Positions 2,853 through 60,978 are shown, counted from the first letter of the stretch. The stretch is 64,000 nucleotides of DNA from Clostridia bacterium (GCA_017452475.1 JAFTMJ010000053.1:1512-65511), one strand, 5' to 3'. Notes: generated by a model from the sequence alone, not told the origin. Translations and numbers: made by a program.

Positions 2853-2864
2853 TTTAAAACGGGT

Positions 2865-2895
2865 TGTGTCAAAACAACCCGTTTTTATGTTGACT
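2865..2895 (+). terminator. intrinsic terminator between response regulator and kinase genes
   Basis: AAAACGGGTTGT-GTCAAA-ACAACCCGTTTTT. Confidence 0.7.
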
Positions 2896-2898
2896 TTG

Positions 2899-2927
2899 CC
2901 CCAAAATTATATTATACTAATAAAAAA
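2899..2927 (+). promoter_or_regulatory. sigma-A type promoter for histidine kinase gene
   Basis: TTGACT - 17 nt - TATACT, immediately after the terminator and 16 nt before the AAAGGAGG SD of the kinase gene. Confidence 0.5.
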
Positions 2928-2942
2928 GAAAGGAGGACGCAT

Positions 2943-45374: not shown

Positions 45375-46690
45375 GTGAATTAATAAATAAAAAAGTAGTA
45401 ATTATCGGCTCAGGTCCTGCGGGGCTTGTGTGCGCCCTTTCCTGCTGTCAAAACGGGATTGAGCCCTCCGATATGCTTATAATAGAGCGTGAAAGTGAAA
45501 TTGGCGGCACCCTTAACCAATGCATCCATTCGGGCTTTGGCAAGAGCTATCTTGACGAGGTTGTTACAGGAACTGAGCTTGCTTCTATGCTCTCGGACGG
45601 TATTCGCCAGCTTGAAATTGAGTATATTACAGACTCAACGGTATTGTCCGTTGACAAGCAAAAGAGGATAAGGGTTGTTTCCCCAAAATACGGCTATTGC
45701 ACCATCAAGGCGGAATCTATCGTTCTTGCTATGGGCTGCCGTGAAAAAACAAAGGGTGCGCTTCAAATCGGCGGCACCCGTCCTGCAGGCGTTTTTTCTG
45801 CAGGCGCCGTTCAAAGAATTGTTAACATTAAGGGCTATATGCCGGGCAAGCGCACTGTTGTGTTAGGCTCGGGTGACTTGGCTATGATAGTTGCGCGCCG
45901 TCTTGTTTTAGAGGGCGGGCGTGTTGTTTGCGTCTGTGAGCCGAAGCCGTATGCAGAGGGCTCCGATGAAAACATCAAGGAGTGCTTGGATGATTTTGAT
46001 ATACCTCTTTATTGCTCCCATTCCGTTACAAGAATTTTGGGTAAGGGAAGGATAGAGGCGGTTGAAATCTCCCACGTTGATAAGCGAGGCAAAATTGTTA
46101 AAGGCACCGCAAAGCGGGTTAAGTGCGACTCCTTTGTGTACCAATGCGGTCTTGTACCCGAAAACGAGATAATTAAGGACACAGGCATTAGGCTTGACAC
46201 ACGCACAAGGGGCGCGTATGTTAACCAGTACTTTGAAACAAATGTAAGGGGCATATTTACCTGCGGTAATGCTGTCAGAATACACGACCTTGTTGACTAC
46301 ATTGTTGAGGAGGCACAGGTTGTTGGCTCGGCTGTTAAGCGCTATCTTGACAACAAGACCGAAAAGCCCGAAAGGGTTATTAGAATTAAAAACGGAGAAA
46401 GAATTTTGTACTCCGTTCCTCAGCATATAGATGTTTATGATGATATTGAGGACTGCGTTATTTACTTTAGAGTAAACGGTAAGTACAAAAACCTGCTCAT
46501 AACCGTAAAAAAGGACGGGGAGGTAATCTATTCCCGTGAAAAGGGCAGTATGTCTTGGCTTGAAACAGGAAAAATTCAGTTAACTCGTGAGCTTGCCGAA
46601 AAAATCGGCGATGCTAAGGAAATTGTTATATGTGCATCGGAGAAGGAAGATGGAGCTAATATTGACAACAACGGTGAAGATAAGGAGTGA
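45371..46690 (+). CDS. NAD(P)/FAD-dependent pyridine nucleotide-disulfide-type oxidoreductase
   Basis: VVIIGSGPAGL and VVLGSGDLAM dinucleotide folds, TCGNA motif; overlaps the upstream stop by 4 nt. Confidence 0.8.
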   Translation: MSELINKKVVIIGSGPAGLVCALSCCQNGIEPSDMLIIERESEIGGTLNQCIHSGFGKSYLDEVVTGTELASMLSDGIRQLEIEYITDSTVLSVDKQKRIRVVSPKYGYCTIKAESIVLAMGCREKTKGALQIGGTRPAGVFSAGAVQRIVNIKGYMPGKRTVVLGSGDLAMIVARRLVLEGGRVVCVCEPKPYAEGSDENIKECLDDFDIPLYCSHSVTRILGKGRIEAVEISHVDKRGKIVKGTAKRVKCDSFVYQCGLVPENEIIKDTGIRLDTRTRGAYVNQYFETNVRGIFTCGNAVRIHDLVDYIVEEAQVVGSAVKRYLDNKTEKPERVIRIKNGERILYSVPQHIDVYDDIEDCVIYFRVNGKYKNLLITVKKDGEVIYSREKGSMSWLETGKIQLTRELAEKIGDAKEIVICASEKEDGANIDNNGEDKE

Positions 46691-46871
46691 AACATCCACC
46701 CTATTGCCCGTTAAAACCGATAAGCCGATAGAGCAGGAAAAGCTTAAAAAGGCAATGAAGAAAATTAATAAAATAGAGGTTTCTGCCCCTATAAATGTTG
46801 GGGATGTTATCCGCCGCAACTTTACCGAAAAGGGCATAAATCTCATTTCAACCAAAACGGTTGAAAGATAA
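46650..46871 (+). CDS. DUF1667-like protein, C-terminal half only (73 aa)
   Basis: TTVKIRSETSTLLPVKTDKPIEQEKLKKAMKKINKIEVSAPINVGDVI resembles the C-terminal half of DUF1667 proteins found after GlpA-like pairs. The ATG follows GGAGAAGGAAG. The Cys-rich N-terminal half is absent. Confidence 0.55.
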   Translation: MELILTTTVKIRSETSTLLPVKTDKPIEQEKLKKAMKKINKIEVSAPINVGDVIRRNFTEKGINLISTKTVER

Positions 46872-46938
46872 TTTTAAAAAATTTTAAAAAAGGTATTGCA
46901 AACTTGAAAAAACTGTGATAAAATAGTCGAGTAAATAC

Positions 46939-47025
46939 GCCGGTGTGATGGAATTGGCAGACGTGCTGGACTCAAAATCCAGTGGTAGCGATACCGTATC
47001 GGTTCGACCCCGATCACCGGCACCA
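46939..47025 (+). tRNA. tRNA-Leu (anticodon CAA), class II with long variable arm, encoded CCA
   Basis: Acceptor GCCGGTG/CACCGGC, anticodon stem CTGGA/TCCAG with loop CTCAAAA, variable arm TGGTAGCGATACCGT, T-arm ATCGG-TTCGACC-CCGAT, 3' ACCA. Confidence 0.95.
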
Positions 47026-47217: not shown

Positions 47218-47252
47218 AAAAAATCAGCGGAAAATTTTCGCTGATTTTTTTG
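47218..47252 (+). terminator. second intrinsic terminator closing an ORF-free 150-nt segment
   Basis: AAAAAATCAGCG-GAAAATTTT-CGCTGATTTTTTT. Confidence 0.65.
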
Positions 47253-47336
47253 TTTCAAAGATTAAGTTTGTATTTACTTTTCGCTATATTTATGTTAGAA
47301 TTAATTTGATATATTATAACGAAACGGAAGCTAATA

Positions 47337-49703
47337 ATGACAGAACAAGAAAAGCAAAGATACATAAGGGCAAAGCGCGCCCTTTTTGACAAATATTATT
47401 CTTTTTTAAACGAGCCGCAAAGGGAGGCTGTGTATACAGTCAACGGTCCTGTTTTAATTTTGGCGGGAGCAGGCAGCGGCAAAACAACCGTGCTTGTAAA
47501 CAGAATTGCCCATATCATTAAATACGGCGATGCTTATTACAGCGACTATGTTCCCGAGTTTATAAACGGGGACGCAATTGAGGATATGGAAAATGCCGCA
47601 AAAAGCAGTGATAAGGAGCTTATCGAAAACTATTTGCGTGTCCTTTCCTTAGAGCCCTGTAAGGCATACAACATCTTAGCTATCACCTTTACAAACAAGG
47701 CGGCAAACGAAATAAAGTCAAGGCTTGAAAGCAAGCTTCGGGAAAGCGCGGCAGACATTTGGGCAGGCACCTTTCACTCCGTGTGTATGAAAATCCTTCG
47801 CTCCCACGGTGAAAAGGTTGGCTACCGTCCCGGCTTTAGCGTTTGCGACACGGATGATGCCAAAAAGGTCATCTCCAAGTGTATGAAGGACTTGAATATT
47901 GACGAAAAGTATTTGGCAATCAAAACCGTAATGAACGAAATCGGCAGGGCAAAGGATAAACTGCTAACCCCCGAGGAATATTCCCTTGAGGTTGGGGGAG
48001 ATGCAAAGTATAAGGATGTTGCCCGTGTTTATGAGCTTTATCAAAAGCGACTGATGGATTCAAATGTGCTTGACTTTGATGATATTATTATGAAAACCGT
48101 TCAGCTCTTTGAAAAGGATGAAAATGTGCTTTCATATTATCAAAAGAAATTCAAGTACATTTGCGTCGATGAGTATCAGGATACAAACAAGGCGCAGTTT
48201 ATTTTGGTTAAGTACTTGGGCGACCTTTACAGAAATGTAATGGTTGTCGGCGATGATGACCAGAGTATTTATAAGTTCCGCGGCGCAACAATAGAGAACA
48301 TTTTAAACTTTGATAAAACCTATTATGATGCCAAGGTTGTTAAGCTGGAGCAAAACTACCGTTCCACCTCAAATATTTTGAATGCCGCAAACAGCGTTAT
48401 CAAAAATAATCAGCATAAGCATATGAAAACACTGTGGTGCGATAACGAGGCGGGAGACAAGATAATAGTTAAGGAAACTCAAACACAAAACGATGAATCA
48501 AGGTACATAATTGACAAAATAGTCAGCCTTAAAAATGAAAAAAGCTTGGAGTACCGTGATTTTGCAATTCTTTATCGTATGAATGCACAGTCAATGAACC
48601 TGGAAACAATGTTTGCCAAAAGCGGTATTCCGTACCGTATGCTCGGCGCTCTTAGGTTCTATGACCGTAAGGAGGTAAAGGATATAATTGCATATTTGTC
48701 CGTTATCAATAACCCCAGCGACAGTATAAGGCTTCGCCGTATAATCAATGAGCCAAAGCGAAAGATTGGAGATGCGTCCTTTGATGCCGCATCCCAAATG
48801 GCGGAGGCGCTTGGTGTTCCTACCTTAGAGGTAATAAGGCACGCAACGGATTATAACGCAATTCCAAAGATTGCCGCAAACAGTATGGTTGCCTTTGCTA
48901 AAATAATAGATGAGCTGATGGATGAGCAGGAGGGCATGGCTCTTTCCGCCTTTGTCCGTCAGGTTATTAAGCGCACAGGCTATGAGTCAGCCCTTGTTGC
49001 CCTCGGTCAAAGTGAGGCGGAAAGGCTTGAAAACTTGGACTCCCTTTGCGAGGCGGTAAGGGAATATGAAAATGAGGCAGAGGAGCCAACCCTGTCGGGC
49101 TTCTTGGAGGAGGTTGCCCTCGTTTCCGATGTGGACCGCTACGATGAAAATGCCGATGCGGTAACGCTAATGACCATCCATAGCTCCAAGGGACTTGAAT
49201 TTCCTGTTGTTTTCCTGCCCGGAATGGAGGAAAATGTTTTTCCCGGCAGTCAGTCTATGGCTATGCCCTCGGAAATAGAGGAGGAGAGGCGTCTTGCCTA
49301 TGTTGCTATTACAAGGGCAAAGAAAAAGCTTATAATAACTCACGCTCGTGAGAGGATGCTTTACGGTATGACACAGCATAACCTGCTGTCCCGTTTTGTC
49401 CGTGAGATTGACCCTATGTACCTTGATGTGCAAAAGGACAGCACCTTTTCAAATATGCGCAGCAGCTTTAATAAGCCAAGTGCATCTCAGTACAATTTTA
49501 ACAATTACGCAAGGACAGAGAAGAAGGCGCCGGTTGTTGCCTTCAGTATAGGCGACAGGATAAAGCATATGACCTTTGGAGAGGGAACGATTTTAAACGT
49601 TATCCCTATGAGCACAGATTTTATGTATGAAATTGCATTTGATAATGTGGGCACTAAAAAGCTTATGGCGTCCTATGTTTCAAAGCTAATGAAAAAGATT
49701 TAA
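47337..49703 (+). CDS. pcrA: ATP-dependent DNA helicase PcrA (UvrD family)
   Basis: LNEPQREAV, GAGSGKTT, TFTNKAANE, VDEYQDTN, QNYRST, TIHSSKGLEFPVVF, YVAITRAKKKL. Confidence 0.95.
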   Translation: MTEQEKQRYIRAKRALFDKYYSFLNEPQREAVYTVNGPVLILAGAGSGKTTVLVNRIAHIIKYGDAYYSDYVPEFINGDAIEDMENAAKSSDKELIENYLRVLSLEPCKAYNILAITFTNKAANEIKSRLESKLRESAADIWAGTFHSVCMKILRSHGEKVGYRPGFSVCDTDDAKKVISKCMKDLNIDEKYLAIKTVMNEIGRAKDKLLTPEEYSLEVGGDAKYKDVARVYELYQKRLMDSNVLDFDDIIMKTVQLFEKDENVLSYYQKKFKYICVDEYQDTNKAQFILVKYLGDLYRNVMVVGDDDQSIYKFRGATIENILNFDKTYYDAKVVKLEQNYRSTSNILNAANSVIKNNQHKHMKTLWCDNEAGDKIIVKETQTQNDESRYIIDKIVSLKNEKSLEYRDFAILYRMNAQSMNLETMFAKSGIPYRMLGALRFYDRKEVKDIIAYLSVINNPSDSIRLRRIINEPKRKIGDASFDAASQMAEALGVPTLEVIRHATDYNAIPKIAANSMVAFAKIIDELMDEQEGMALSAFVRQVIKRTGYESALVALGQSEAERLENLDSLCEAVREYENEAEEPTLSGFLEEVALVSDVDRYDENADAVTLMTIHSSKGLEFPVVFLPGMEENVFPGSQSMAMPSEIEEERRLAYVAITRAKKKLIITHARERMLYGMTQHNLLSRFVREIDPMYLDVQKDSTFSNMRSSFNKPSASQYNFNNYARTEKKAPVVAFSIGDRIKHMTFGEGTILNVIPMSTDFMYEIAFDNVGTKKLMASYVSKLMKKI

Positions 49704-49716
49704 GGAGATAATAAAA

Positions 49717-51441
49717 ATGAACATTCCAAGACCTGAGCATCCCAACCCCCAATTTGAAAGAGAAAACTGGGTAAACCTAAATGGCGAATGGGAGTTTGAG
49801 CTTGACCGCGGCATAAGCGGCAGAGACAGAAAATTCTATGAAAGAGATAGCCTTGACTCGAAAATCATCGTTCCCTTCTGCCCTGAAAGCGTGCTTTCAG
49901 GCATAGGCAATACAGACTTTTTAAACTGCGTGTGGTATCTTAAAAGAATTAAGCTTAAGAAGTGCAACAAGAGGGTAATTTTGCACTTTGGCGCCGTTGA
50001 TTACGAAAGCTACATCTACATAAACAAAAAGCAGGTATACCACAACATCGGCGGTTACGTTGGCTTTGATATTGATATTACAGATTATGTTAAGATGGGT
50101 GAGGAAAACATTATTACCGTTTGCGCAATTGACACCCATCCAAGCGGAAAAGCATCCGGCAAGCAGTCGAAAAACTATTATTCAATGGGCTGTGACTACA
50201 CCCGTACAACAGGTATTTGGCAAACCGTATGGCTTGAATATGTGGAGCAAAGCTATATAAAGAGTGTAAAATACTATACCTCGGCTGAGGACAGCAGTGT
50301 TCAAATAGAGGTAGAAACCGTTGGAAACGGCGAATTTAAGGCGATTGCCACCTATAAGGGCAAGAATGTGGGCGAAAAGGCAGTTAAGCTAAAGGAGGGT
50401 ATTTCCCGCCTTACAGTAAGCCTTAGCGAGCTTCATTTGTGGGAGGCAGGCAAGGGCAGGCTTTATGACCTTGAGCTAACCTACGGTAAGGATAAGGTTA
50501 AAAGCTATTTTGGTATTCGTTCAACCGCTTTTGATAAGAAGAGCTACTTGCTAAACGGCAAGCCCCTTTATCTCCGTACAGTTCTTGACCAGGGCTTCTA
50601 CAAGAAGGGCATTTACACAGCGGAAACAGACGAGGAATTGATACAGGATATCTATTTGTCCTATGACGCAGGCTTTAACGGTGCGCGCCTCCACCAAAAG
50701 GTGTTCGAGCCAAGATTTTTATACCACTGCGATAAGCTGGGCTATCTTGTGTTTGGCGAAACAGGAAACTGGGGCTTGGACTGCTCAAATATGGAACAGC
50801 TGACTCCCTTTATGCTTGAATGGCAAAGAGAAATTGCAAGGGACTTTAACCACCCGTCAATAATTGGCTGGTGCCCGCTGAACGAAACATGGGATTATGA
50901 TTTCAGACATCAAAATGATGATTTTGTAAGGGCTATGTACTATGCAACAAAGACAATGGATACAACCCGTCCCTGCGTGGGCACAAGCGGCAACTATCAG
51001 GTTGTTTCCGATATATATGACCTACACGATTATATTCAGGGCAAGGAGGACTTTGAAAAAATATATTTAGCGCCAACTCAAGAGGAAATGCTGAATAATT
51101 ATGATAACCACCCATATCACGAATGGATAAGAAGATATCAAAAGTCAATAGACTTTAAGGATATGGCACTGTATATCAGTGAATACGGCGGTATCAGATG
51201 GGACACAGACGGTGTTGGCGGCTGGGGCTATGGCGACGGCCCTAAAACAGAGGAGGAGTTCCTTGACAGATACGAATATCTTACAAAGGCGCTAATTAAC
51301 AGCCCATATCTTTGCGGCTTCTGCTATACTCAGCTTTATGATGTGGAGCAAGAGGTTAATGGCTTGTACACATATGAAAGAAAACCAAAATTTGATATGA
51401 GGAGAATTAAAGCCATTACCCAGGCTAAAAAGGAAAAATAA
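49717..51441 (+). CDS. glycoside hydrolase family 2 protein
   Basis: GH2 sugar-binding N-terminus (LNGEWEF, GAVDYESYIYINK), Ig-like middle, TIM barrel with FNGARLHQ and acid/base WCPLNETW. Confidence 0.8.
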   Translation: MNIPRPEHPNPQFERENWVNLNGEWEFELDRGISGRDRKFYERDSLDSKIIVPFCPESVLSGIGNTDFLNCVWYLKRIKLKKCNKRVILHFGAVDYESYIYINKKQVYHNIGGYVGFDIDITDYVKMGEENIITVCAIDTHPSGKASGKQSKNYYSMGCDYTRTTGIWQTVWLEYVEQSYIKSVKYYTSAEDSSVQIEVETVGNGEFKAIATYKGKNVGEKAVKLKEGISRLTVSLSELHLWEAGKGRLYDLELTYGKDKVKSYFGIRSTAFDKKSYLLNGKPLYLRTVLDQGFYKKGIYTAETDEELIQDIYLSYDAGFNGARLHQKVFEPRFLYHCDKLGYLVFGETGNWGLDCSNMEQLTPFMLEWQREIARDFNHPSIIGWCPLNETWDYDFRHQNDDFVRAMYYATKTMDTTRPCVGTSGNYQVVSDIYDLHDYIQGKEDFEKIYLAPTQEEMLNNYDNHPYHEWIRRYQKSIDFKDMALYISEYGGIRWDTDGVGGWGYGDGPKTEEEFLDRYEYLTKALINSPYLCGFCYTQLYDVEQEVNGLYTYERKPKFDMRRIKAITQAKKEK

Positions 51442-52763
51442 TGAGTACTGTTAAAATTGATTATTCAAAAGAGATAGGCAATGTTAAGGTAATGCACGCA
51501 GTTAACAATGGCCCTGTTATTGCCGGCAAGGACCAAACAAGAGGGAACGAGCATTCATATAGAGCTGCAAGAATCCCATATGCAAGAGTGCATGACGCTG
51601 CCTTTTTCGCAGGCTACGGTGGAGAGCATACTATTGATGTTCACGCAATATTTCCAAATTTCGACGCAGATGTAAACGATCCAAATAGCTATGATTTTGC
51701 ATGCACCGACCACTATATTTCTCAAATTATTAGTGTCGGCACACAACCGTTTTATCGCTTAGGCTCTAAAATAGAGCACGGTGTAAAGAAATATGGAACA
51801 ATAATGCCACCCGATTTTCAGAAATGGGCAGAGGTGTGCGAGCATATAATCAGACACTATAATGAGGGCTGGGCAGACGGCTTTAGCTATAATATAAAGT
51901 ATTGGGAAATCTGGAACGAGCCGGATTTAGACCCGGATGATGCGGTAAATAAAAGATGCTGGAGTGGTAGCTGGGCTGAGTATATAAGATTTTATACAAT
52001 AGCCTCAAAGCACCTAAAATCTTGCTTCCCACATCTAAAAATTGGCGGACCTGCCTCTTGTGGTGATGAAAAATTTATGGAGTTGTTTTTACAGGAAATA
52101 AGCAAGGAAGAAAATGTGCCCCTTGACTTTTTATCTTGGCATTGGTATTGGACCGAGCCAAGCGATGTTTCTATCAAAGCTACTCGCATAAGAAAATTGC
52201 TTAAATTATACGGTTATGGAAATGCCGAAAGCATTTTAAACGAGTGGAACTACGTTCGCTCCTGGTCAAAGGAATTTGTATATTCAATAAAGCAAATAAT
52301 CGGTATGAAGGGTGCAGCTTTTACCTCTGCCGTTATGTGTGCAATGCAAAACAATCCGGATGTTGATATGCTTATGTATTACGATGCTCGTCCTACCGGA
52401 TTTAATGGACTTTGGGATATGTACACCTACGAGGAGCTCAAGGGCTACTACGCATTTTATACATTTGCTAACCTTTATGACCTTGGTACACAGGTAGAAA
52501 ATATCTCGGACGATGAGAATATTTATGTAGTAGCCGCTAAAAATGGAGAAGGTGTTGGTGCGGTTGTAACCTACTATACTGAAAACGATAACGAAAATAG
52601 TAAATATGTCACCATTGATGTAAATGGCTACGATATGTCAAAGGCAAAAATCTACCTCACCGATGAAAAAAGTCAATATTGCCCATACATAAAGGCTGCC
52701 TTCAAGGACGGCAAGCTGGAAATCAGACTTGAGCGTAACAGTATAATCTATATCGAAGCATAG
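51441..52763 (+). CDS. clan GH-A glycoside hydrolase (GH39-like)
   Basis: WEIWNEPD acid/base motif and a NEWN-type nucleophile region typical of GH39/GH5-like barrels. The family assignment is tentative. Confidence 0.6.
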   Translation: MSTVKIDYSKEIGNVKVMHAVNNGPVIAGKDQTRGNEHSYRAARIPYARVHDAAFFAGYGGEHTIDVHAIFPNFDADVNDPNSYDFACTDHYISQIISVGTQPFYRLGSKIEHGVKKYGTIMPPDFQKWAEVCEHIIRHYNEGWADGFSYNIKYWEIWNEPDLDPDDAVNKRCWSGSWAEYIRFYTIASKHLKSCFPHLKIGGPASCGDEKFMELFLQEISKEENVPLDFLSWHWYWTEPSDVSIKATRIRKLLKLYGYGNAESILNEWNYVRSWSKEFVYSIKQIIGMKGAAFTSAVMCAMQNNPDVDMLMYYDARPTGFNGLWDMYTYEELKGYYAFYTFANLYDLGTQVENISDDENIYVVAAKNGEGVGAVVTYYTENDNENSKYVTIDVNGYDMSKAKIYLTDEKSQYCPYIKAAFKDGKLEIRLERNSIIYIEA

Positions 52764-52776
52764 AAAGAGGCGCAAA

Positions 52777-53343
52777 ATGACAGAGCTTGAAAAAATAGAG
52801 TATGCCAAATCCTTTATTGATAAGCTGGCAAACGGAATAAATCCGTTGGATGACAGCCCCGTTCCCGAGCGTGATATTGTAAATAATGTAAGACTTTCAC
52901 GTTGCTTTTTCTATGTTTCCGATATTTTGCGTCAGGTTGTTGAAAATGGCGGAATAACAATGGAAAGAGTGGCAAAGCCAAAGAAAAAACCGTTTTCGCT
53001 GTCCCAAGAGGAGCGCGAAAGCATTAAAATCTCCGACACTCCCTTGACAATCAGCGAAATAACAAAATATTTGAATTCTCTGATAGACGAGGAAAAGACC
53101 AAAAAGATTACAACAAACGCAATAAGCAATTGGCTGGTAGAAATGGGCTTTTTGTGCGTGATAACCTACGACAACAACAAGCATAGAAAATCACCAACAG
53201 AGCAAGGCATAAAAATCGGCATTTTAACCGAAGAAAAAATGGGTCAATATGGCAAATACATAGCAGTGCTTTATTCCCGATCAGCCCAGCAATTTATCTA
53301 TGACAACTTAGATGCAATCACATCTCAAAAGGAAACTCAATAA
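52777..53343 (+). CDS. hypothetical protein (188 aa)
   Basis: ORF with a GAAAGAGG SD, 13 nt after the GH gene; no motif recognised with confidence. Confidence 0.5.
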   Translation: MTELEKIEYAKSFIDKLANGINPLDDSPVPERDIVNNVRLSRCFFYVSDILRQVVENGGITMERVAKPKKKPFSLSQEERESIKISDTPLTISEITKYLNSLIDEEKTKKITTNAISNWLVEMGFLCVITYDNNKHRKSPTEQGIKIGILTEEKMGQYGKYIAVLYSRSAQQFIYDNLDAITSQKETQ

Positions 53344-53344
53344 C

Positions 53345-53381
53345 AAAAAGGCATTTCCGCAAAACGGAAATGCCTTTTTTG
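53345..53381. terminator. bidirectional intrinsic terminator (left copy)
   Basis: AAAAAGGCATTTCCG-CAAAA-CGGAAATGCCTTTTTT. Confidence 0.8.
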
Positions 53382-53422
53382 TTGAATCAAATCAACAAAT
53401 TCAAATACCTACCGTACCTAAA

Positions 53423-53473
53423 TTAGTTGTTCTGATTCTTGATGGAATTTTCGTAAGATTCTACCATCTTCTT
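53423..53473 (-). pseudogene. orphan 3' fragment of alpha/beta-type SASP gene (last 16 codons + stop)
   Basis: Encodes KKMVESYENSIKNQNN*, identical to the C-terminus of the intact SASP at 58860-59066; no upstream SASP coding sequence. Confidence 0.85.
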
Positions 53474-53600
53474 GTCTTTATTATCATAGCAAAAGCCAGT
53501 AAAAACAATCAAATAAATTCAAGAGGTTTTAAAGTGAGTAAAAAGATTTTTGTTGTACCTTTATTGTAGCTTGAGTACATTAAATATTCAAGTTGAAAAG

Positions 53601-53662
53601 GGTGCAAAATTGGGTGAATTAGAGGTAATTTAAGGTGCAAAATAGTGCATAATGGTGCAAAA
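53601..53662 (+). repeat. three direct GGTGCAAAA motifs (iteron/operator-like)
   Basis: GGTGCAAAA at 53601, 53634 and 53654, with related GTGCATAA at 53645, inside the island about 130 bp from the left repeat. Confidence 0.6.
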
Positions 53663-53665
53663 GGT

Positions 53666-53950
53666 TTAAAGTATCTTGTACCAAAGCATGTATGTGATTT
53701 CAATTTCTTTTCTTTCAATACTACCTTTAACAACAAAGTCAACTTCCTTGCACTCTGTAAAGCTACTTTTATACTCACCTTGCTTATAAAGTATTGGATA
53801 GCAGTAGGGAATACAGTATTCTATTATCCTTTCCCATTTAGAGTTGGGATAGAGAATTAAGTCTTCACCAGAGTCAGATATAAATCCAATACCTGACTTT
53901 TTATAGCTGAAGTCATTTTCTTTTCTAAGACAGTAAGCCACTTTAATCAT
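53666..53950 (-). CDS. hypothetical protein (94 aa), island-encoded, divergent from the DUF488 operon
   Basis: ORF with a strong SD (GAAAGGAG, 8 nt before ATG); no recognisable motif. Confidence 0.55.
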   Translation of the reverse strand: MIKVAYCLRKENDFSYKKSGIGFISDSGEDLILYPNSKWERIIEYCIPYCYPILYKQGEYKSSFTECKEVDFVVKGSIERKEIEITYMLWYKIL

Positions 53951-54190
53951 CTTTATTTACTCCTTTCTTTTTAAATTTTTTATTTCGCCCGCAAAACAAA
54001 AAAGGCACAGTTATCGTTCAAAATAACTGTGTTTTTAAATATGGTAACAGATGTCAACAGCCTCTATAACCTCAAATTTAAGCAAAAGAAAATTTCTGCG
54101 TTAAAATCCTCAACTTATAGTTTTCAGCCGAAATTTCTCCTGTTTACATCTGCGATAACTGTGCCACAACACCAAAGGCGAAATAAGATA

Positions 54191-54219
54191 TTGAAAACAA
54201 TTACAATTGATGTTATACT
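54191..54219 (+). promoter_or_regulatory. sigma-A type promoter of the DUF488 operon
   Basis: TTGAAA - 17 nt - TGTTATACT (extended -10), 35 nt upstream of the first ATG. Confidence 0.55.
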
Positions 54220-54254
54220 AGTAATAGTAAGTTTTGTAAAGAGTGGGTTAATAA

Positions 54255-54869
54255 ATGGAAAATTCAATTTACACAATAGGATATACAGGCTATAGCTTAG
54301 ATGAATTTATTCAAGAATTGAAAAATAAGGGAATAAATGTTGTAATCGATGTTAGAAGTTCACCGTATTCAGAACGTTATCCTGATTACAATAGAGATAA
54401 TTTGGAATCAACATTGGCTTCAAACAGAATATATTACAGGAACTATGTAAAAGAATTTGGAGCTAGACAGGATAACAGAAATTTTTATTCTAGGGATGGA
54501 TATTTTGATTTTGAAGTTTTCGCAAAATCAGAGCAATTTTTGTCTGGTGTAGAAAAGATTAAAAATAGTGTGGCAAAGGGATATAGGGTTCTTTTCCTCT
54601 GCGCAGAAAAAGAGCCTATACAATGTCACCGAACAATATTAGTATCAAGAGCTTTTCACAAACTTGGATATAACGTCATCCACCTTAAGCCTAATAACAT
54701 AGCTATAAATCACGGTGAAATTGAAACACAACTGTTGAACATGTATTTTCCAAATAGATATCAAAGGGATATGTTTTCAAATGATGATAAAACAGATGAT
54801 GATTATTTGATAGATGCTTACAGAATGCAGAATAGAAAAATAGGATATAAGATAGAAGGGGAAGAGTAA
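54255..54869 (+). CDS. DUF488 family protein (204 aa)
   Basis: IYTIGYTGYSLDEFIQELKNKGINVVIDVRSSPYS and LFLCAEKEPIQCHRTIL match the DUF488 (YeaO-like) pattern. Confidence 0.8.
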   Translation: MENSIYTIGYTGYSLDEFIQELKNKGINVVIDVRSSPYSERYPDYNRDNLESTLASNRIYYRNYVKEFGARQDNRNFYSRDGYFDFEVFAKSEQFLSGVEKIKNSVAKGYRVLFLCAEKEPIQCHRTILVSRAFHKLGYNVIHLKPNNIAINHGEIETQLLNMYFPNRYQRDMFSNDDKTDDDYLIDAYRMQNRKIGYKIEGEE

Positions 54870-55303
54870 TGATTATTTGTACAATGGGGTTTGCTCAAAA
54901 AAATGCCAAAACATTTTTCGAATTGCTAAAAGAAAACAAAGTGGAAGCTTTAATTGATGTTAGATTAAATAATAAATCCCAATTAGCTGGTTTTACAAAG
55001 GGAAATGACCTTGAATATTTTTTACCTATACTTTGTGATTGTGAATATTATCATGAAATTGATTTTGCTCCTACAAAAGAAATACTGGATTCTTATAAAG
55101 ACAAAAAGACAACGTGGATAGAATATGAAAATGCATTTATTCCATTAATAGAAGAAAGAGGAATAAAAGCACTTTTTGATGAAAAATACAGAAAATATAA
55201 CTGTGTTTGCTTGCTGTGCAGTGAGCCAACACCGGAACAGTGCCATCGAAGATTGGTTTCAGAATATGTAGCGAAAAAGAACGACATAATCAAACACATT
55301 TAG
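54869..55303 (+). CDS. DUF488 family protein (144 aa), divergent paralog
   Basis: ICTMGFAQKNAKTFFELLKENKVEALIDVRLNNKS and CLLCSEPTPEQCHRRLV. The ATG shares its A with the upstream TAA. Confidence 0.8.
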   Translation: MIICTMGFAQKNAKTFFELLKENKVEALIDVRLNNKSQLAGFTKGNDLEYFLPILCDCEYYHEIDFAPTKEILDSYKDKKTTWIEYENAFIPLIEERGIKALFDEKYRKYNCVCLLCSEPTPEQCHRRLVSEYVAKKNDIIKHI

Positions 55304-55312
55304 GAGTATTTA

Positions 55313-57397
55313 ATGTACAAGGAAATAGTTATCTTAACCAAGTCAAAAAAGAACAATAAATATTGCGTTGCTGGTATAGAATTGAATGCAAGAAAATGGA
55401 TAAGACTTGTTACTTTTGATAAACTAAGCGACGGAGCATTAGATGATTTGGATCTTGAACTTGCAACAGGTGGTTGCGCTGAATCCCTTGATGTAGTTAG
55501 AGTATCAATTATAAAAGAAGTACCTGTTGGTTGTCAAACGGAGAACAATCTAATTGAAAGAAGAAAGAAATTATATAAGATCGGAAAAATGTCATTAAGA
55601 GAACTTTTTGACTTAGTTAATCCAATTGATAGTCCGTATATTTTTTTAAACGCCAACAGGTATTTGGATAATTTAGATGGGTTGGACTACTCCTTGGTTT
55701 TGGCAAAAGTTACGAATATGAGAGTATACTACAATGATAATGGTAAGAGAAAAGCGGATTTCCAGTATAATATCGAAACGTATGCTCAAATTAGTGTTAC
55801 AGATCCAATTTATCTTGATTTGTTTGAAGAAACAGGGACGAAAAACGAACTTTTCATTGATAAAGCTTACGTAGTTGTTAGTATACCACACAAGCCACAT
55901 AATGCAACAGGATTCTACTATAAGTTTTTAGCAAAAATTTTTCCCGTAGATGCTTTCTTTGATGAGGATGAGAAATTCGATTTTACTAAACCACATTCAA
56001 TTGACGAGATAATTGACACATTTGAATTTCCAATTCCGGTGAAAAAGAGCTTTTGGACAAGTGATTTTTACCATATAATCGAAGATGTTACCGAACGAGG
56101 AACAACAGGTGTGGATTATAAGGGCGTTTCACCGTACGGAAGAGGGAGAACGTTTAGCTTGGAAGATAGTGATCTGTATGTGTGTGATGACAAAGTTAGT
56201 TTAGTATATAAACATAAGAAAAATGAAACTGTTAATAATGACAATATAGATTTTGATTTTGAGAAAACATATACAATCAATGAAATAGTAGAACGTTTTG
56301 AATTTCCAATACCCATAAAAAGAGATATTTGGTTTAATGATTTTTACTACAACATTGAAAGCATATATAGTGATTTTACAAAAGGAACATCGTATTTATG
56401 TGGAGAGTGGGAAAGCGCTAGAAGAACCTTCAGCATAAACGATAGTGGTTTTTATGTTTGCAAGGATAAGGGACGACTAAGGATAAAAAGTACTTTCCAA
56501 AAGAATATTAAAACCAAAGAAACTGTTGAGCAAAAAAATACTGAAACGATTGAAAACAATTTGGTTTTAGATTATAAAAAAAGCTATTCATTAGAGTTTC
56601 TTTTAAAACACTTGTCTCCTCCTTTTGCGGTTAAAAAAGGAGATTGGTCACGTTCTCGTTATTTCGTAGTTAAAGGGAAATTGGGCTCTAATGCGATTGG
56701 TGATGTATATTTTAATACTCGAAAAATTCAACATGATATGTTCAACTTGCAATTGAAATTCTATTTGTGTGCTGATACGGTAATTAAAAACTCTGATGGT
56801 TTAGTTGAAGAAAAGAAAAACGTAACGGAGACGTTGGTTAAAAATAAACCAAACAAAAAAAGAGAGTTTTCTCAAAGCATGATTGAAAAAACGGGCACAG
56901 CATCAAAACCGGAAAATATGCAAAAGGAAGAGCAAACCAAATATAGCGAAATAGAGCTTTTGCAGAAAGAATTGAGCTTAAAACCTGGAGAATCTATCGT
57001 TTACGTATTAAGTGATACTGGTTGGCAAGAGGCTTTGTTTTTGGGTTTACAAAAGGTTTCTGGTGAGTATATAGCAAAAGTAAAAAAATCAGATTTTGAA
57101 ACTTCATATAGTTATCCTAGTGAGGTCGTTACTATTAATGATCGAGGACTTAAAAAAAGTGAAAGAGAAATTGAAGAAGAAAAATTAAGAAAAAAGCAAT
57201 TAAAAGAATTGAACGCGAGAATTAGAACTCAAAACGAAAATAGAATAAAAGAAGAAGCAGAAAGAACTATAAAATTTGAAGAGGAACTGAAACAGGGAAA
57301 AAGTTCATATGGCAGTGGAACTGATATTAATCATGTGTTAAGGTGTGATGGTATTTGTTCTAATTGCAAAAGGTGCGAAGATTGTCTAAAGGGATAA
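55313..57397 (+). CDS. 694-aa multi-domain protein of unknown function (N-terminal domain, 3 tandem ~80-aa repeats, coiled coil, C-terminal Cys cluster)
   Basis: AGGAG SD; starts 9 nt after the DUF488-2 stop. Internal repeats at aa 222-300, 313-392 and 418-493. KE-rich heptad-like segment at aa 614-662. C-terminal CDGICSNCKRCEDC. Confidence 0.8.
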   Translation: MYKEIVILTKSKKNNKYCVAGIELNARKWIRLVTFDKLSDGALDDLDLELATGGCAESLDVVRVSIIKEVPVGCQTENNLIERRKKLYKIGKMSLRELFDLVNPIDSPYIFLNANRYLDNLDGLDYSLVLAKVTNMRVYYNDNGKRKADFQYNIETYAQISVTDPIYLDLFEETGTKNELFIDKAYVVVSIPHKPHNATGFYYKFLAKIFPVDAFFDEDEKFDFTKPHSIDEIIDTFEFPIPVKKSFWTSDFYHIIEDVTERGTTGVDYKGVSPYGRGRTFSLEDSDLYVCDDKVSLVYKHKKNETVNNDNIDFDFEKTYTINEIVERFEFPIPIKRDIWFNDFYYNIESIYSDFTKGTSYLCGEWESARRTFSINDSGFYVCKDKGRLRIKSTFQKNIKTKETVEQKNTETIENNLVLDYKKSYSLEFLLKHLSPPFAVKKGDWSRSRYFVVKGKLGSNAIGDVYFNTRKIQHDMFNLQLKFYLCADTVIKNSDGLVEEKKNVTETLVKNKPNKKREFSQSMIEKTGTASKPENMQKEEQTKYSEIELLQKELSLKPGESIVYVLSDTGWQEALFLGLQKVSGEYIAKVKKSDFETSYSYPSEVVTINDRGLKKSEREIEEEKLRKKQLKELNARIRTQNENRIKEEAERTIKFEEELKQGKSSYGSGTDINHVLRCDGICSNCKRCEDCLKG

Positions 57398-57496
57398 AAA
57401 GGTGAATGAATTTGATTTAATTGATTGTTTCAGAAAAAACGAAAAATAAAGTAAACTTTAGAATTACAAAAACAAGCAAGTACATACTGCAATAAA

Positions 57497-57525
57497 ATAG
57501 GGCTATTAATTTAGCCCTTTTTCTT
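57497..57525 (+). terminator. intrinsic terminator after the three-gene operon
   Basis: AGGGCTA-TTAATT-TAGCCCT followed by TTTTCTTT. Confidence 0.6.
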
Positions 57526-57623
57526 TACTTTCGTATCAAGACAAGCACACGCCCACGACACAAAGTAGAAAATCGGTATGGTTTTGGTCCTTTTGGGCTT
57601 TGTTCGTTTTTTTTGAATTATTA

Positions 57624-57652
57624 TTGACTTGAATAATCTAATGTGATAAAAT
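57624..57652 (+). promoter_or_regulatory. sigma-A type promoter of the HipA-like kinase gene
   Basis: TTGACT - 17 nt - TGATAAAAT. Confidence 0.5.
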
Positions 57653-57700
57653 AAACTATAATGATGGTACACTAAATTGGCTAAAAAGGAGGGAGTATTG

Positions 57701-58750
57701 ATGACTAACAGAAATTATGAAATTTTAAGTGAAAATACCGTTGTTGCAATTTGGCAAAATAACAAGCTAAATGTACTCAACGAAGCTTTGTTACCGTTAT
57801 ATCTACGCAAGATTCAAAATGCAAATATGTGGCTCGAAACACGTGCAATAGATAGTCATAGAGCAAACTCTCGCCTTTTGAAAAAAGCCCTTAGATTAAC
57901 TGACAAGGACGATATTTCAACCGTAATACATGTTAACGGAGCCACTATTACAGATAACTATTGGATTCGAGAAATCGGATCAGAGTTGACTTATGACGAT
58001 GTTAAATTTGAGGACGATTATTTTTCCAATCTTGCTCTTAAAGGAAACTATGATAGCTTTAATCGTGCTGCAAACAGTAAGCGTTCAAAAACTCCAGAGC
58101 TTACCAATGTAGGAAGCTTTGAAAAGTGTTGGAAGTTGCGCGACGGAAAGTGGTGGATGTACAAAAAGGCAAACCACGAAGAGATGTTTTCTGAATTGTT
58201 TATTTATGAGCTTGGAAGAGAGCTTGGATTTGATATGGCAATTTATGAGCGTGGAGAAGGGTATATTAAATCTCTTGATTTTACAGATTCAGCATCGGTA
58301 AACTTTGAACCTGCTTCAACATTTATGGGAGATAACGAGGAGTATATTGATGTTATAAAAGCACTTGAAAAACTTTGCCCTCAAGCAATCTCCGATTATG
58401 TTAAATTGATATTCTTAGATACTATTTGTGCAAACCCGGACAGACATACAAATAACTTTGGACTTTTGCGTGACGTACAAACAGGAGAACTCCTCGGACT
58501 TGCACCAAACTATGATAACAATATGGCGCTGATTTCCCGTGGATACCCATCAAAAACAGGCAACAAAGATGTTCTTATAACAATGTTTAATGAACTCTTG
58601 GAAGAATATCCAACCTTCCGTTCTTTCGTTCCAAAAGTAACAGAAGATACAGTTAGAAAAGTTATTAACAAACTTAATATGAAGGTCAAATCACAACTTA
58701 TTGTTGAGTTAGTAACAAAACGCTACGAAATGATTGTCAAGAAATTTTAA
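57701..58750 (+). CDS. HipA-like serine/threonine kinase (349 aa), no cognate HipB/HipS gene
   Basis: Start MTNRNYEIL follows AAAAAGGAGGGA. Catalytic-loop-like ICANPDRHTNNFGLL and APNYDNN match the HipA_C D-x-H-x-x-N and YD motifs. Confidence 0.75.
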   Translation: MTNRNYEILSENTVVAIWQNNKLNVLNEALLPLYLRKIQNANMWLETRAIDSHRANSRLLKKALRLTDKDDISTVIHVNGATITDNYWIREIGSELTYDDVKFEDDYFSNLALKGNYDSFNRAANSKRSKTPELTNVGSFEKCWKLRDGKWWMYKKANHEEMFSELFIYELGRELGFDMAIYERGEGYIKSLDFTDSASVNFEPASTFMGDNEEYIDVIKALEKLCPQAISDYVKLIFLDTICANPDRHTNNFGLLRDVQTGELLGLAPNYDNNMALISRGYPSKTGNKDVLITMFNELLEEYPTFRSFVPKVTEDTVRKVINKLNMKVKSQLIVELVTKRYEMIVKKF

Positions 58751-58778
58751 AAGACCTGTCATCAAATCCATGTAATCA

Positions 58779-58910
58779 AACGAAAAAGCATTTCCGCAAA
58801 ACGGAAATGCTTTTTCTGTTGAATCAAATCAACAAATTCAAATACCTACCGTACCTAAATTAGTTGTTCTGATTCTTGATGGAATTTTCGTAAGATTCTA
58901 CCATCTTCTT
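58779..58910. repeat. right direct repeat (attR-like), includes terminator and functional SASP 3' end
   Basis: Near-identical to 53342-53473; hairpin AAAAAGCATTTCCG-CAAAA-CGGAAATGCTTTTT. Confidence 0.9.
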
Positions 58911-59066
58911 AACCATCTGACCGCCGATAGAGCCTGCCTGCTTAGAGGTCAAGTTACCGTTGTAGCCGTTCTGGTTAAGAGTAACACCTACTTCGCTAGC
59001 AGCCTGCATCTTGAACTGGTCAAGAGCAGCCTTAGCTTCAGGAACTGAGATGTTGTTCTTAGACAT
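58860..59066 (-). CDS. alpha/beta-type small acid-soluble spore protein
   Basis: 68 aa. KMQAASEVGV...LTSKQAGSIGGQMVKKMVE matches the SASP alpha/beta signatures (K-x-E-x-A-x-E-x-G and G-x-V-G-G). AGGAG SD. Confidence 0.9.
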   Translation of the reverse strand: MSKNNISVPEAKAALDQFKMQAASEVGVTLNQNGYNGNLTSKQAGSIGGQMVKKMVESYENSIKNQNN

Positions 59067-59721: not shown

Positions 59722-60978
59722 ATCAAACGAGATTTTGAAGAGGTAATCAAGGAAAACGCAACTTGGCTACTTAGATATATAAAAAGTAAAATTTCAAACA
59801 AGAGCTTATGCGAGGACATGTTGCAAGAAATCATGTTAAAGGCATATAAAGCATACGATGATTATATTGAAAATGGTACATTCAAATCTTGGCTTTTGCG
59901 TATTGCAAGTAATTATTTGAATAATTATTATTCAAGAAACTCGGTTGAATGTTTATCTCTTGACTATGAGGACGAGGAATTTAATTCGTTCTACGGTTAT
60001 CTTTCAAATGAAGAATTAAGTCCTGAGGAAAAGCTTATACACGATGAGCTTATTTCAAGTGTTATGCTACAAATATCTAAATTACCGAAAAAACAAAGTC
60101 AAATGATAATCTATCGATACTTTTACGATATGAGCATAGAGGAAATATCAACTAAAATGAATATTCCAAAAGGTACAGTAAAAAGCACTACTCATTATGC
60201 AATAGAAACACTTAAAAAACACCTTAATGTAGATAGACAAGGAGAAAAAATTATGGAATGCAAGGAAATCTATAAATACTTATTTATTTATGCCAACGGA
60301 ACGATTCAGCCTGATCACAAAAAGCTCGTTGAAGAGCATATAAAAACCTGTCCAAAATGCAACGATATTGTAGTCGCTTTACAAAAGCTCATTCCTACTA
60401 TGGTGTTCGCACAGGAGGATGAAATGACGTATTTTAGCATATCGTTCCCTGAATTAAAGTTAGCATTTACAGGTATTAGATATGAGGTGGAAAATTTTGA
60501 ACTATGTGAAAAAGCTCTCGAAGAGTGGGGCGGAAATATTCCTGACGATGAGAATAATATGTCAAGCGGCTATACTAAAAATTGTGAAATTTTAGGAGTT
60601 TTTGATAACGAAGGAAATGAAATTAAAATGAAAATTTGCCAAGAAACCGAAACGCATTATAGAACAAAACCAACCTATATGAAAAAGGTATATAGGTATA
60701 TGTGGAATTATTGTGCGTTCTTGAATAAGGTAGCCGGAGGCTACATAAGAAGCTCCAAGGAAGCACCCAATCTATATTATGGTTCGTTTAATAACAGTTT
60801 GGGTGGAAATGCAAAATCCGCGCTTTATCAAGCAATACCAAAAGAAGCTGAAAATATTAGAATCAAACGAGGAAATGGCGTTATAGATTGCGACACATAC
60901 AAATTTGCATATGTTGACCGATATGTAACAGAGGAAGAAACAATAAGACTTGAATATTCGTATTTGTTAAACAAATAA
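59722..60978 (+). CDS. ECF-type sigma-70 factor fused in frame to a zf-HC2 anti-sigma domain and a soluble C-terminal domain; start codon uncertain
   Basis: Sigma region 2 (CEDMLQEIMLKAYKAY...FKSWLLRIASNYLNNYY), region 4 (LPKKQSQMIIYRYFYDMSIEEISTKMNIPKGTVKS), then MECKEIYKYL...HIKTCPKCN with no intervening stop. GAAAGGAGGGG SD at 59705-59715. The only codon at proper spacing is ATC (59722); the first ATG is at 59818. Confidence 0.6.
   Translation: MKRDFEEVIKENATWLLRYIKSKISNKSLCEDMLQEIMLKAYKAYDDYIENGTFKSWLLRIASNYLNNYYSRNSVECLSLDYEDEEFNSFYGYLSNEELSPEEKLIHDELISSVMLQISKLPKKQSQMIIYRYFYDMSIEEISTKMNIPKGTVKSTTHYAIETLKKHLNVDRQGEKIMECKEIYKYLFIYANGTIQPDHKKLVEEHIKTCPKCNDIVVALQKLIPTMVFAQEDEMTYFSISFPELKLAFTGIRYEVENFELCEKALEEWGGNIPDDENNMSSGYTKNCEILGVFDNEGNEIKMKICQETETHYRTKPTYMKKVYRYMWNYCAFLNKVAGGYIRSSKEAPNLYYGSFNNSLGGNAKSALYQAIPKEAENIRIKRGNGVIDCDTYKFAYVDRYVTEEETIRLEYSYLLNK

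Follow-up and report, generated by a model that had tools for sequence, protein, structure and literature searches.

A DuOB and paired-DUF488 gene trio in a Clostridia bacterium, assigned from sequence to the catalogued defence candidate PDC-M45

What kind of system is encoded by the three tightly packed genes at positions 54255-57397 of a 64,000-nucleotide stretch of Clostridia bacterium DNA (GCA_017452475.1, JAFTMJ010000053.1:1512-65511), and does it take part in genetic conflict? The whole stretch is called the window here, and all coordinates refer to it. A first-pass annotation had described the trio as a self-contained operon of two divergent DUF488 proteins and a repeat protein of 694 amino acids (aa), and had proposed it as an undescribed conflict or defence module. 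Judged from its sequence, the trio is a complete, horizontally acquired copy of the PDC-M45 module. It thus belongs to a catalogued but uncharacterised kind of system, and what is new here is a lineage-specific, extended form of the DuOB subunit. As to its role, we favour, at roughly an even chance, a host- or plasmid-borne conflict module in which the DuOB protein would target single-stranded DNA (ssDNA) or DNA ends for two phosphoesterase-like DUF488 subunits. The letters A, B and C denote DuOB (the gene 3 type), the B-type DUF488 protein (gene 1 type) and the C-type DUF488 protein (gene 2 type), respectively; L-numbers denote loci or contigs and P-numbers denote protein homologues.

Identity and layout of the trio

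All three proteins match components of PDC-M45 in PADLOC-DB v2.0.0. Gene 1 is matched by PDC-M45B (PDLC04657; 8.9e-49, residues 2-201), gene 2 by PDC-M45C (PDLC04658; 3.2e-53, residues 1-139) and gene 3 by PDC-M45A (PDLC04653; 3.5e-26, residues 2-210). The three components are adjacent on one strand, separated by a 1-nucleotide (nt) overlap and a 9-nt gap, and the strong match to every model together with the co-directional arrangement indicates the same system type. Pfam searches, read against the gathering thresholds (DUF488 22.2 bits, DUF488-N3a 27, DuOB 27, HipA_C 30.5), assign gene 3 to DuOB (PF22557; 1.9e-39, 136.3 bits, residues 3-209, model positions 1-210 of 210), and genes 1 and 2 to DUF488 (PF04343; 4.7e-21 and 76.1 bits for gene 1, 5.9e-19 and 69.3 bits for gene 2). 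The earlier statement that no described system has this composition therefore has to be withdrawn: the whole trio matches a candidate that already bears a name, and existing Pfam models match gene 3 (DuOB) and gene 2 ('Active DUF488-N3 subclade'). The window copy differs from the usual PDC-M45 in its A subunit, which has 694 aa instead of about 205-220 aa; the additional part, with three repeats, a coiled coil and a Cys-rich tail, is common to few sequences only.

PDC systems were nominated as defence candidates on the basis of genes embedded within BREX, DISARM or Type I restriction-modification (R-M) loci (bioRxiv 10.1101/2024.01.29.577857). PDC-M45 is mentioned by name in no paper of the searchable literature. 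Conflict systems composed of DuOB, DUF488-N3 and DUF4326 proteins were reportedly predicted by Burroughs and Aravind in 2023, and the Pfam names 'Dual OB-containing domain' and 'Active DUF488-N3 subclade' presumably stem from that work. The window trio resembles these systems in that the Pfam DuOB and DUF488-N3 models match genes 3 and 2, and the plasmid versions described below pair DuOB and DUF488 with DUF4326, which fits one enzyme clade plus DuOB. Gene 1 differs. Whereas gene 2 scores 31.6 bits against DUF488-N3a (PF22751, the 'active' subclade), above the cut-off, gene 1 is a generic DUF488 protein that scores 16.6 bits and is not a member. Nor is it recognisable as an 'inactive' paralogue, as all core motif residues are kept. 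In a quick profile test with hhalign, only the C..P..CH motif of the DUF488 profiles aligned with the plasmid DUF4326-like protein, at low probability.

The gene layout given by the first-pass annotation was confirmed by the open reading frame (ORF) call and by the sequence itself: the stop of gene 1 and the start of gene 2 overlap by 1 nt (TAATG, 54867-54871), and genes 2 and 3 are separated by 9 nt (55304-55312) with AGGAG at 55302-55306. The promoter and the downstream terminator that it had named were likewise found by a consensus scan (Table 1). The predicted promoter sits 36 nt 5' of gene 1 and is among the three best sites in the 4.7 kb scanned. Promoter-like sites were not enriched in the scanned DNA (26 found versus 20 expected), so the call leans on position and score and not on statistics. 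It is supported by the trios of the closest orthologues, L003 and L004, in both of which a separate TTGAAA-type promoter lies at a matching distance from the gene. The terminator-like hairpin lies about 100 nt 3' of the gene 3 stop, and the scan placed hairpin and T-run at 57499-57518. These signals support a single self-contained transcription unit, and the trio can be read as one translationally coupled operon.

A perfect consensus promoter (TTGACA-18-TATAAT) also occurs on the minus strand at 55508-55537, in the 5' part of the DuOB gene, where it covers the codons of invariant C74 and Q75. Perfect matches of the TTGACA/TATAAT type number 4 in the window versus 0.04 expected. A regulatory role for this antisense site was considered and dropped; it has no counterpart at the same place in L003 and L004 and is therefore probably incidental.

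The DuOB subunit and the two DUF488 subunits

The DuOB domain was modelled with AlphaFold2 (AF2) from an alignment of 124 sequences. Residues 1-210 are nearly all beta-strand and form two barrels, with a predicted local distance difference test (pLDDT) score of about 93-98. The best Foldseek matches of this model are POT1, TEBP, Teb1, HIN-200 (p202/IFI16/AIM2) and LEF-3, at E-values of 1e-3 to 5e-2; because these values are marginal, the matches support the fold class and an analogy only. The analogy is with tandem-OB binders, namely the telomere-type proteins POT1, TEBP-alpha and Teb1, the HIN-200 proteins AIM2, IFI16 and p202, and baculovirus LEF-3. These share the architecture of two OB barrels and recognise ssDNA or DNA ends, or foreign DNA in the case of HIN proteins. 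DuOB differs from them in having no sequence similarity (6-13 % identity) and modest template-modelling (TM) scores, and in its own distinctive set of invariant polar residues, which includes Cys18, so that analogy and not membership is meant. For the gene 3 protein, no relative turned up in the PDB by sequence or by profile search. Fourteen residues are invariant across the 124 sequences: S11, K13, C18, R31, D60, Q75, E77, N78, S127, F150, Y157, T163, D164 and S190.

Fusions provide a second line of evidence on the ligand. In a Victivallales metagenome-assembled genome, a single protein of 912 aa combines DuOB with all the domains of a RecQ helicase (DEAD, Helicase_C, RecQ_Zn, RQC and HRDC; L067 7905-10643), and in P0026 it is fused to a MutS_I-like region and Myb/helix-turn-helix (HTH) domains. 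A further fusion joins it to the phage-associated DUF1351. DNA as the ligand of DuOB gains independent support from these fusions, and the DuOB domain is predicted from its model to be a targeting module that binds ssDNA or DNA ends.

The C-terminal extension of gene 3, about 480 aa long, is rare and is partly common to P0002-P0005 and P0011 only. It contains three internal repeats (Table 1). R1 and R2 are 46 % identical (E 5e-23), and the diverged R3 is related to R2 at E 1e-4 and to R1 at E 5e-5. No Pfam or PDB relative of the repeat unit was found, and Pfam and PHROGs scans of the whole extension returned nothing meaningful; weak KOW and Tudor matches in the Foldseek search probably come from the repeat unit. 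The extension also has an alpha/beta element that was modelled weakly and is kept in P0003 and P0005, and a long single helix that is, from the model, a probable coiled-coil or oligomerisation element. The C-terminus of P0002 is Cys-rich like that of the window protein. The description of gene 3 as a 694-aa repeat protein is thus right as to the repeats, of which there are three, and misplaces the emphasis, as gene 3 primarily encodes a DuOB protein with an atypical C-terminal extension. P0061 was considered as a stand-alone repeat protein and set aside. It is near-identical to the repeat region of P0002 and begins inside repeat 1, and is therefore almost certainly a truncated gene call.

Both small proteins carry the DUF488 hallmarks that had been noted for them, V/LIDVR and LC-x-E-x-x-P-x-x-CHR, in addition to the Pfam matches given above. 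They are 24-30 % identical to each other, and the B and C groups are homologous (hhalign probability 99.4 %, 24 % identity). The B-type protein has a core DUF488 domain followed by a C-terminal extension of about 65 aa that ends in a conserved AY..N..IGY. In 52-53 B-type orthologues, D32, R34, C116, E118, C124, H125 and R126 are invariant or at least 90 % conserved; in 38 C-type orthologues, D30, R32, N35, S37, Q38, C117, E119, C125, H126 and R127 are invariant. D-x-R and C-x-E…P…C-H-R are thus kept at 90 % or more in both groups, beside motifs private to B (FGARQ and the AY..N..IGY extension) and to C (RLNN-SQLAGF-K and APTK). The suggestion of two non-redundant subunits is supported by these data, as two orthologous groups are each kept across dozens of genomes with their core motifs retained. 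By the conservation of these motifs, both DUF488 subunits are probably catalytically competent.

The gene 2 protein was modelled with AF2 from an alignment of two sequences and shows an alternating beta-alpha fold (pLDDT 74.8, predicted TM score 0.73). The small-domain fold matches of highest probability are PRL-1, KAP, a C. difficile PTP and an RNA 5'-phosphatase domain (2c46). A fold of this type whose C-terminal loop holds a conserved Cys and Arg (C-x-E…C-H-R) may point to a likeness with the Cys-dependent phosphatases of the rhodanese-phosphatase superfamily; the matches are not significant (E at least 0.04), however, and the DUF488 motif departs from the canonical C-x5-R P-loop. In the searchable literature the family has a single functional hint, from E. 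coli: when the DUF488 gene yeaO is deleted, CRISPR spacer acquisition shifts to one IS4 locus. The shift would be in line with the family acting on DNA fragments or ends in their metabolism and is far from proof of it.

A substrate of RNA has to be weighed at this point. DuOB would then bind tRNA or another RNA, and the DUF488 proteins would heal or modify 2',3'-cyclic-phosphate, 2'-phosphate or 5' ends left by ribotoxins in the course of conflicts. RNA-binding is common among OB folds, for example the anticodon-binding ones, and the RNA 5'-phosphatase domain is among the weak fold matches. The related RapZ C-terminal domain binds RNA and sugar-phosphate, the superfamily includes RNA 2'-phosphotransferase-like and RNA 5'-phosphatase enzymes, and mobile RNA-repair cassettes are similarly sporadic. 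However, all informative fusions of DuOB are to DNA-specific modules (RecQ with RQC and HRDC, MutS_I, Myb/HTH), its best structural neighbours are DNA binders, and the neighbourhoods show no recurrent RNA ligase, kinase or Hen1-type partner. RNA-end processing is accordingly given a slim chance, and DNA is retained as the presumed substrate in the conflict reading.

Distribution, mobility and a proposed role

The distribution of the module was determined with a pattern-based scan derived from a 10-sequence DuOB alignment and applied to one genome per species. Across 185,579 species this gave 70 loci, in which ORFs were called and then searched with the three window proteins. In all, 72 DuOB loci were compared (70 of them from other genomes), and 74 loci were tabulated, the additional two having a DUF488 gene as the sole match. 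The hosts of the 70 loci are mostly gut and rumen Clostridia, and also include Alphaproteobacteria, Saccharibacteria, Victivallales, Synergistaceae, Selenomonadaceae and Dethiobacteria. A separate HMMER search with gene 3 (E ≤ 1e-3, 1.84 billion representatives) returned 810 clusters, nearly all of them DuOB-only proteins of about 205-220 aa.

A co-directional DUF488 gene adjoins DuOB in about 63 of the 72 DuOB loci. The tabulated loci fall into the architectures BCA (33 loci), BA (12), ABC (8), CAB (5) and CAA (2); loci with DuOB alone are mostly at contig ends, and no further gene family recurs in more than five of the 74. Of 32 BCA loci, 22 have a B stop that overlaps the start of C, and in 29 the gap from C to A is -10 to +30 nt. 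A Selenomonas locus encodes a B::DuOB fusion of 331 aa (L070 849-1844), which implies that B-type DUF488 and DuOB proteins are physically associated. The proposed check on co-occurrence of DUF488 genes with homologues of the 694-aa protein came out in favour of linkage. From this census and the plasmid versions, the unit of selection is DuOB together with one or two DUF488-type enzymes; the gene order varies, and small plasmids carry the unit as well. The window holds a complete copy of it.

The window copy of the trio lies in an insertion of 5,437 bp, where it is accompanied by a 94-aa orphan ORF and by a gene for a HipA_C-like kinase. The insertion is bounded by two 132-nt direct repeats that are 97 % identical, and its GC content is 0.324 (53474-58778) versus 0.433 in the left flank. 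In the related strains L086, L087 and L088 the site is empty: the 132 nt occur once and join window position 53473 to 58779, and the order PcrA, GH2, GH39 and a 188-aa gene runs straight into the convergent SASP gene. It is from these joined flanks with a single repeat copy that the 5,437 bp can be called an insertion. ORF and family scans found no integrase or recombinase gene within 53474-58778, and neither an integrase nor a tRNA was found at the island borders. The idea of an AT-rich acquired island is upheld by the drop in GC, the direct repeat and the empty sites. The island provides a clean natural example of the cassette being accessory and recently mobile.

At the left end of the island, the 94-aa orphan ORF (53666-53950, minus strand) has no match in Pfam, PADLOC or PHROGs, and none of the other loci has a homologue of it; it might be a remnant or encode a small regulator.

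DuOB was found on eight plasmids, including small Acinetobacter and Moraxella plasmids and an IncP plasmid, and was nearly absent from phages (none of 50,697 phage records and one of 2.9 million viral contigs). The proteobacterial plasmids carry DuOB, a C-type DUF488 and a DUF4326 or DUF4326-like protein in place of the B-type DUF488 (L075, L076 and L077). L076 is the mobilisable Klebsiella pneumoniae plasmid pB16KP0202-4 of 4,167 bp, in which the module (2370-4028) is accompanied by little other cargo besides the replication region.

Plasmid carriage raises the alternative of a module that serves the element itself, either as an addiction or stabilisation cassette or as a means of protecting DNA ends or countering restriction, by which incoming ssDNA or linear DNA would escape host nucleases. 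A mobilisable Klebsiella plasmid which is essentially the module plus a replication region would suit such a role, as would the other carriers, the small Acinetobacter and Moraxella plasmids and the IncP plasmid. In the window, moreover, the module travels with a toxin-type HipA-like kinase that has no HTH partner, and end-binding proteins of the POT1 or TEBP type protect ends and do not attack them. On the other side, chromosomes carry the majority of the 70 loci, many of them with bona fide defence genes around them, and nothing in the module can be recognised as toxin-like. Three conserved, translationally coupled genes with two enzyme-like subunits would be atypical of an addiction cassette, and plasmids commonly carry defence systems as well. 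A selfish role is therefore judged unlikely, and the conflict reading is preferred.

The neighbourhoods include both defence and housekeeping genes. Among 120 proteins within 3 kb of the module at 35 loci, PADLOC matches comprised Type I R-M, HerA, SIR2, ZacA, GmrSD, SspE, MADS, NsnA and HEC-05 in a raw listing, and Pfam showed housekeeping genes among the same proteins. The closest orthologous trios stand in unrelated contexts, L003 after lysS and L004 before a GajB/UvrD-like helicase and unknown genes. In L004 (2637-8536), the trio is followed by the 885-aa UvrD/GajB-like helicase, four unannotated genes and a LexA/S24-like repressor, and the region may be a defence island or the edge of a prophage.

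An accessory DNA-repair or maintenance module is another alternative. DuOB would bind damaged or single-stranded chromosomal DNA, and the DUF488 enzymes would clean 'dirty' ends (3'-phosphate, 3'-phosphoglycolate or 5'-adducts) so that repair can proceed. This would be in keeping with the fusions to RecQ and a MutS_I-like region, the housekeeping neighbours at several loci, the likeness of DuOB to ssDNA or telomere-end binders, and the altered choice of DNA fragments that feed CRISPR adaptation in the E. coli yeaO deletion. A repair function fits poorly with a very sporadic distribution (70 loci in 185,579 species, 810 clusters among 1.84 billion representatives), with strain variability and an empty site in close relatives, with the atypical composition of the module DNA, and with carriage on small plasmids and frequent defence-gene neighbours. 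We rate it as improbable, at much the same level as a selfish role.

The conflict or defence reading of the first-pass annotation fits this context, in which the neighbours are variable and often defence genes, and the module is carried on plasmids and nearly absent from phages. In the mechanism proposed here, the two OB barrels of DuOB would bind ssDNA or DNA termini of an invading replicon; candidate targets are phage genome ends, replication or recombination intermediates and conjugative ssDNA. DuOB would then recruit the two non-redundant DUF488 subunits, whose D-x-R and C-x-E…C-H-R pocket would remove, transfer or cap a terminal phosphate or sugar-phosphate. DNA of the invader might as a result not be ligated, circularised, primed or repaired, and would fail to establish. 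The repeats, coiled coil and Cys-rich tail of DuOB in this lineage would most likely add an oligomerisation or recognition surface. What the analysis establishes is family identity, linkage and coupling of the genes, motif retention in both DUF488 groups, the tandem-OB model, the DNA-related fusions, the insertion with its empty site and the contrast between plasmids and phages. Under this proposal the substrate would be DNA and not RNA, the action and its chemistry would be at ends, and the outcome would be directed against phages or other mobile genetic elements.

Several points weigh against this proposal. Payne et al. present the PDC systems as 145 candidates and call them untested (bioRxiv 10.1101/2024.01.29.577857), and no experiment on the module was found in the searchable literature on PDC-M45, DuOB, DUF488 and DUF4326. 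Housekeeping genes (lysS, gyrA, pgk and fba by Pfam) are neighbours at many loci. The structural matches of DuOB are marginal, none reaching E ≤ 1e-3, with TM scores of about 0.36-0.43 on the target, and OB folds bind RNA too. Many of the invariant residues of DuOB are polar (S, K, C, R, D, Q, E, N and T), so DuOB may do more than bind, and it could by this pattern be an enzyme or a small-ligand binder in place of a plain DNA clamp. For the DUF488 proteins, sequence and profile searches of the PDB found no solved relative, and the best match of the gene 2 model to PDB folds, at E 0.04, is not significant, with Cys-phosphatases at a probability of 0.57-0.69. To our knowledge, no biochemical activity has been assigned to any DUF488 protein, a large family that includes E. 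coli YeaO.

A stronger form of the proposal is put forward more tentatively, as possible and distinctly less probable than the general one. The module may represent a new class of innate immunity in which a tandem-OB subunit resembling telomere proteins recognises ssDNA or ends of an incoming replicon, and the terminal phosphates are covalently modified or stripped by two distinct Cys/His/Arg enzymes of the DUF488 clade, with separate ends or steps assigned to them. Such terminal-phosphate chemistry, if true, is not known from any defence system described to date. End-disabling immunity would also give the first biochemical function for the widespread DUF488 family, YeaO included, and the triple beta-barrel repeat with its coiled-coil extension would be an added sensor or oligomerisation device. 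In the general case, a true defence role would bring new effector chemistry and de-orphan DUF488; if defence proves wrong, a well-delimited accessory cassette has been described. The locus offers two leads: DuOB may bind ssDNA or DNA ends, and the two enzyme subunits are non-redundant and probably both active. Versions on proteobacterial plasmids (Klebsiella, Citrobacter and Acinetobacter) are directly tractable, and the 4.2-kb plasmid can serve as a convenient experimental entry.

The neighbouring kinase and the surroundings of the island

Table 1. Coordinates of the module, its subdomains and the boundaries of the island in the window
Feature	Position	Strand	Description	Basis
Direct repeat, left copy	53342-53473		132 nt; duplicated 3' end of SASP gene (…KKMVESYENSIKNQNN and stop) with its terminator hairpin	
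Promoter, predicted	54191-54219	+	sigma-70-type, TTGAAA-17-TATACT, extended -10 TG, 10/12 matches	consensus scan
Gene 1	54255-54869	+	B-type DUF488 protein, 204 aa	ORF call
Gene 2	54869-55303	+	C-type DUF488 protein, 144 aa	ORF call
Gene 3	55313-57397	+	DuOB-family protein, 694 aa	ORF call
DuOB domain (aa 1-212)	55313-55948	+	two OB-like beta-barrels	AF2, Foldseek
Repeat R1 (aa 222-300)	55976-56212	+	helix then small beta-barrel, pLDDT 74-90	
Repeat R2 (aa 314-392)	56252-56488	+	helix then small beta-barrel, pLDDT 78-94	
Repeat R3 (aa 419-488)	56567-56776	+	diverged copy, poorly modelled, pLDDT below 50	
Long single helix (aa 617-660)	57161-57292	+	44 residues, pLDDT 91-95	
Cys-rich tail (~aa 675-694)	57335-57394	+	C-x3-C-x2-C-x2-C-x2-C	read from translation
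Terminator-like hairpin with T-run	57499-57525	+	intrinsic type, AGGGCTA…TAGCCCT, 7 bp with 4 GC	scan
HipA_C-like kinase gene	57701-58750	+	349 aa from ATG; ORF from TTG 57677	
Direct repeat, right copy	58779-58910		132 nt; functional 3' end and terminator of intact SASP gene	
SASP gene, intact	58860-59066	-	alpha/beta-type; convergent with the 188-aa gene in empty-site strains	

The kinase gene downstream of the trio (Table 1) matches Pfam HipA_C (8.2e-8, 32.6 bits, above 30.5) and PADLOC PDC-M03A (1.8e-11). It resembles the toxin of HipBA toxin-antitoxin systems in its HipA_C domain, which scores above the Pfam cut-off, and in having an HTH_3 (HipB-like) partner in other strains. In L080 and L081, a hipA-like gene overlaps its HTH_3 partner (L080 599-1874), and the homology of these two contigs to the window ends exactly at the kinase ATG, 57701. 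The window kinase is unlike HipBA in having no HTH partner, as no HTH gene was found upstream of it in the window, and in being unlinked to DuOB modules elsewhere.

Could the trio and the kinase form one four-gene system here, with the trio replacing, for instance, a HipB-type antitoxin or regulator? They lie within the same 5.4-kb insertion, and the kinase has an overlapping HTH_3 partner in other strains with a break in homology right at its start codon. However, the kinase gene stands behind the terminator of the trio and has its own promoter-like site (57624-57652), no HipA-like homologue was found beside any of the more than 70 other DuOB loci, and the SASP-proximal hipA-like gene occurs in other strains without the trio. 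A single four-gene unit is for these reasons considered very improbable, the least likely of the alternatives, and the kinase is taken to be a co-passenger of the three-gene module. The earlier observation of a toxin-type kinase next to the trio is correct as to its presence, whereas the kinase is not a conserved partner in the 70 or more other loci. As other strains carry the SASP gene, a hipA-like gene and HTH_3 without the trio, the island is a composite and the site a hotspot with at least three cargo states.

Just outside the island, a 188-aa backbone gene (52777-53343) encodes a C-terminal domain (aa 63-179), possibly a winged helix, that is 34 % identical (E 9e-17) to a C-terminal domain fused to DuOB in seven ABC-type loci (L021, L027, L029, L034, L036, L037 and L044). 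Full-length homologues of this gene occur in three human-gut 'Bacteriophage sp.' contigs. It was considered as a fourth component and dropped as a part of the island, being present in the empty-site strains.

Past the SASP gene, a single ORF of 386 aa (59818-60978) combines sigma-70 regions 2 and 4 with an anti-sigma-type zinc finger (zf-HC2) and a long C-terminal extension; the DNA around it is low in GC (0.327), and the ORF may be another accessory gene. On the other side of the island, tRNA-Leu(CAA) at 46939-47025, the only RNA gene detected in the interval of 44-64 kb, is located at a break in synteny with L086, between the blocks 44651-47025 and 47235-53473.

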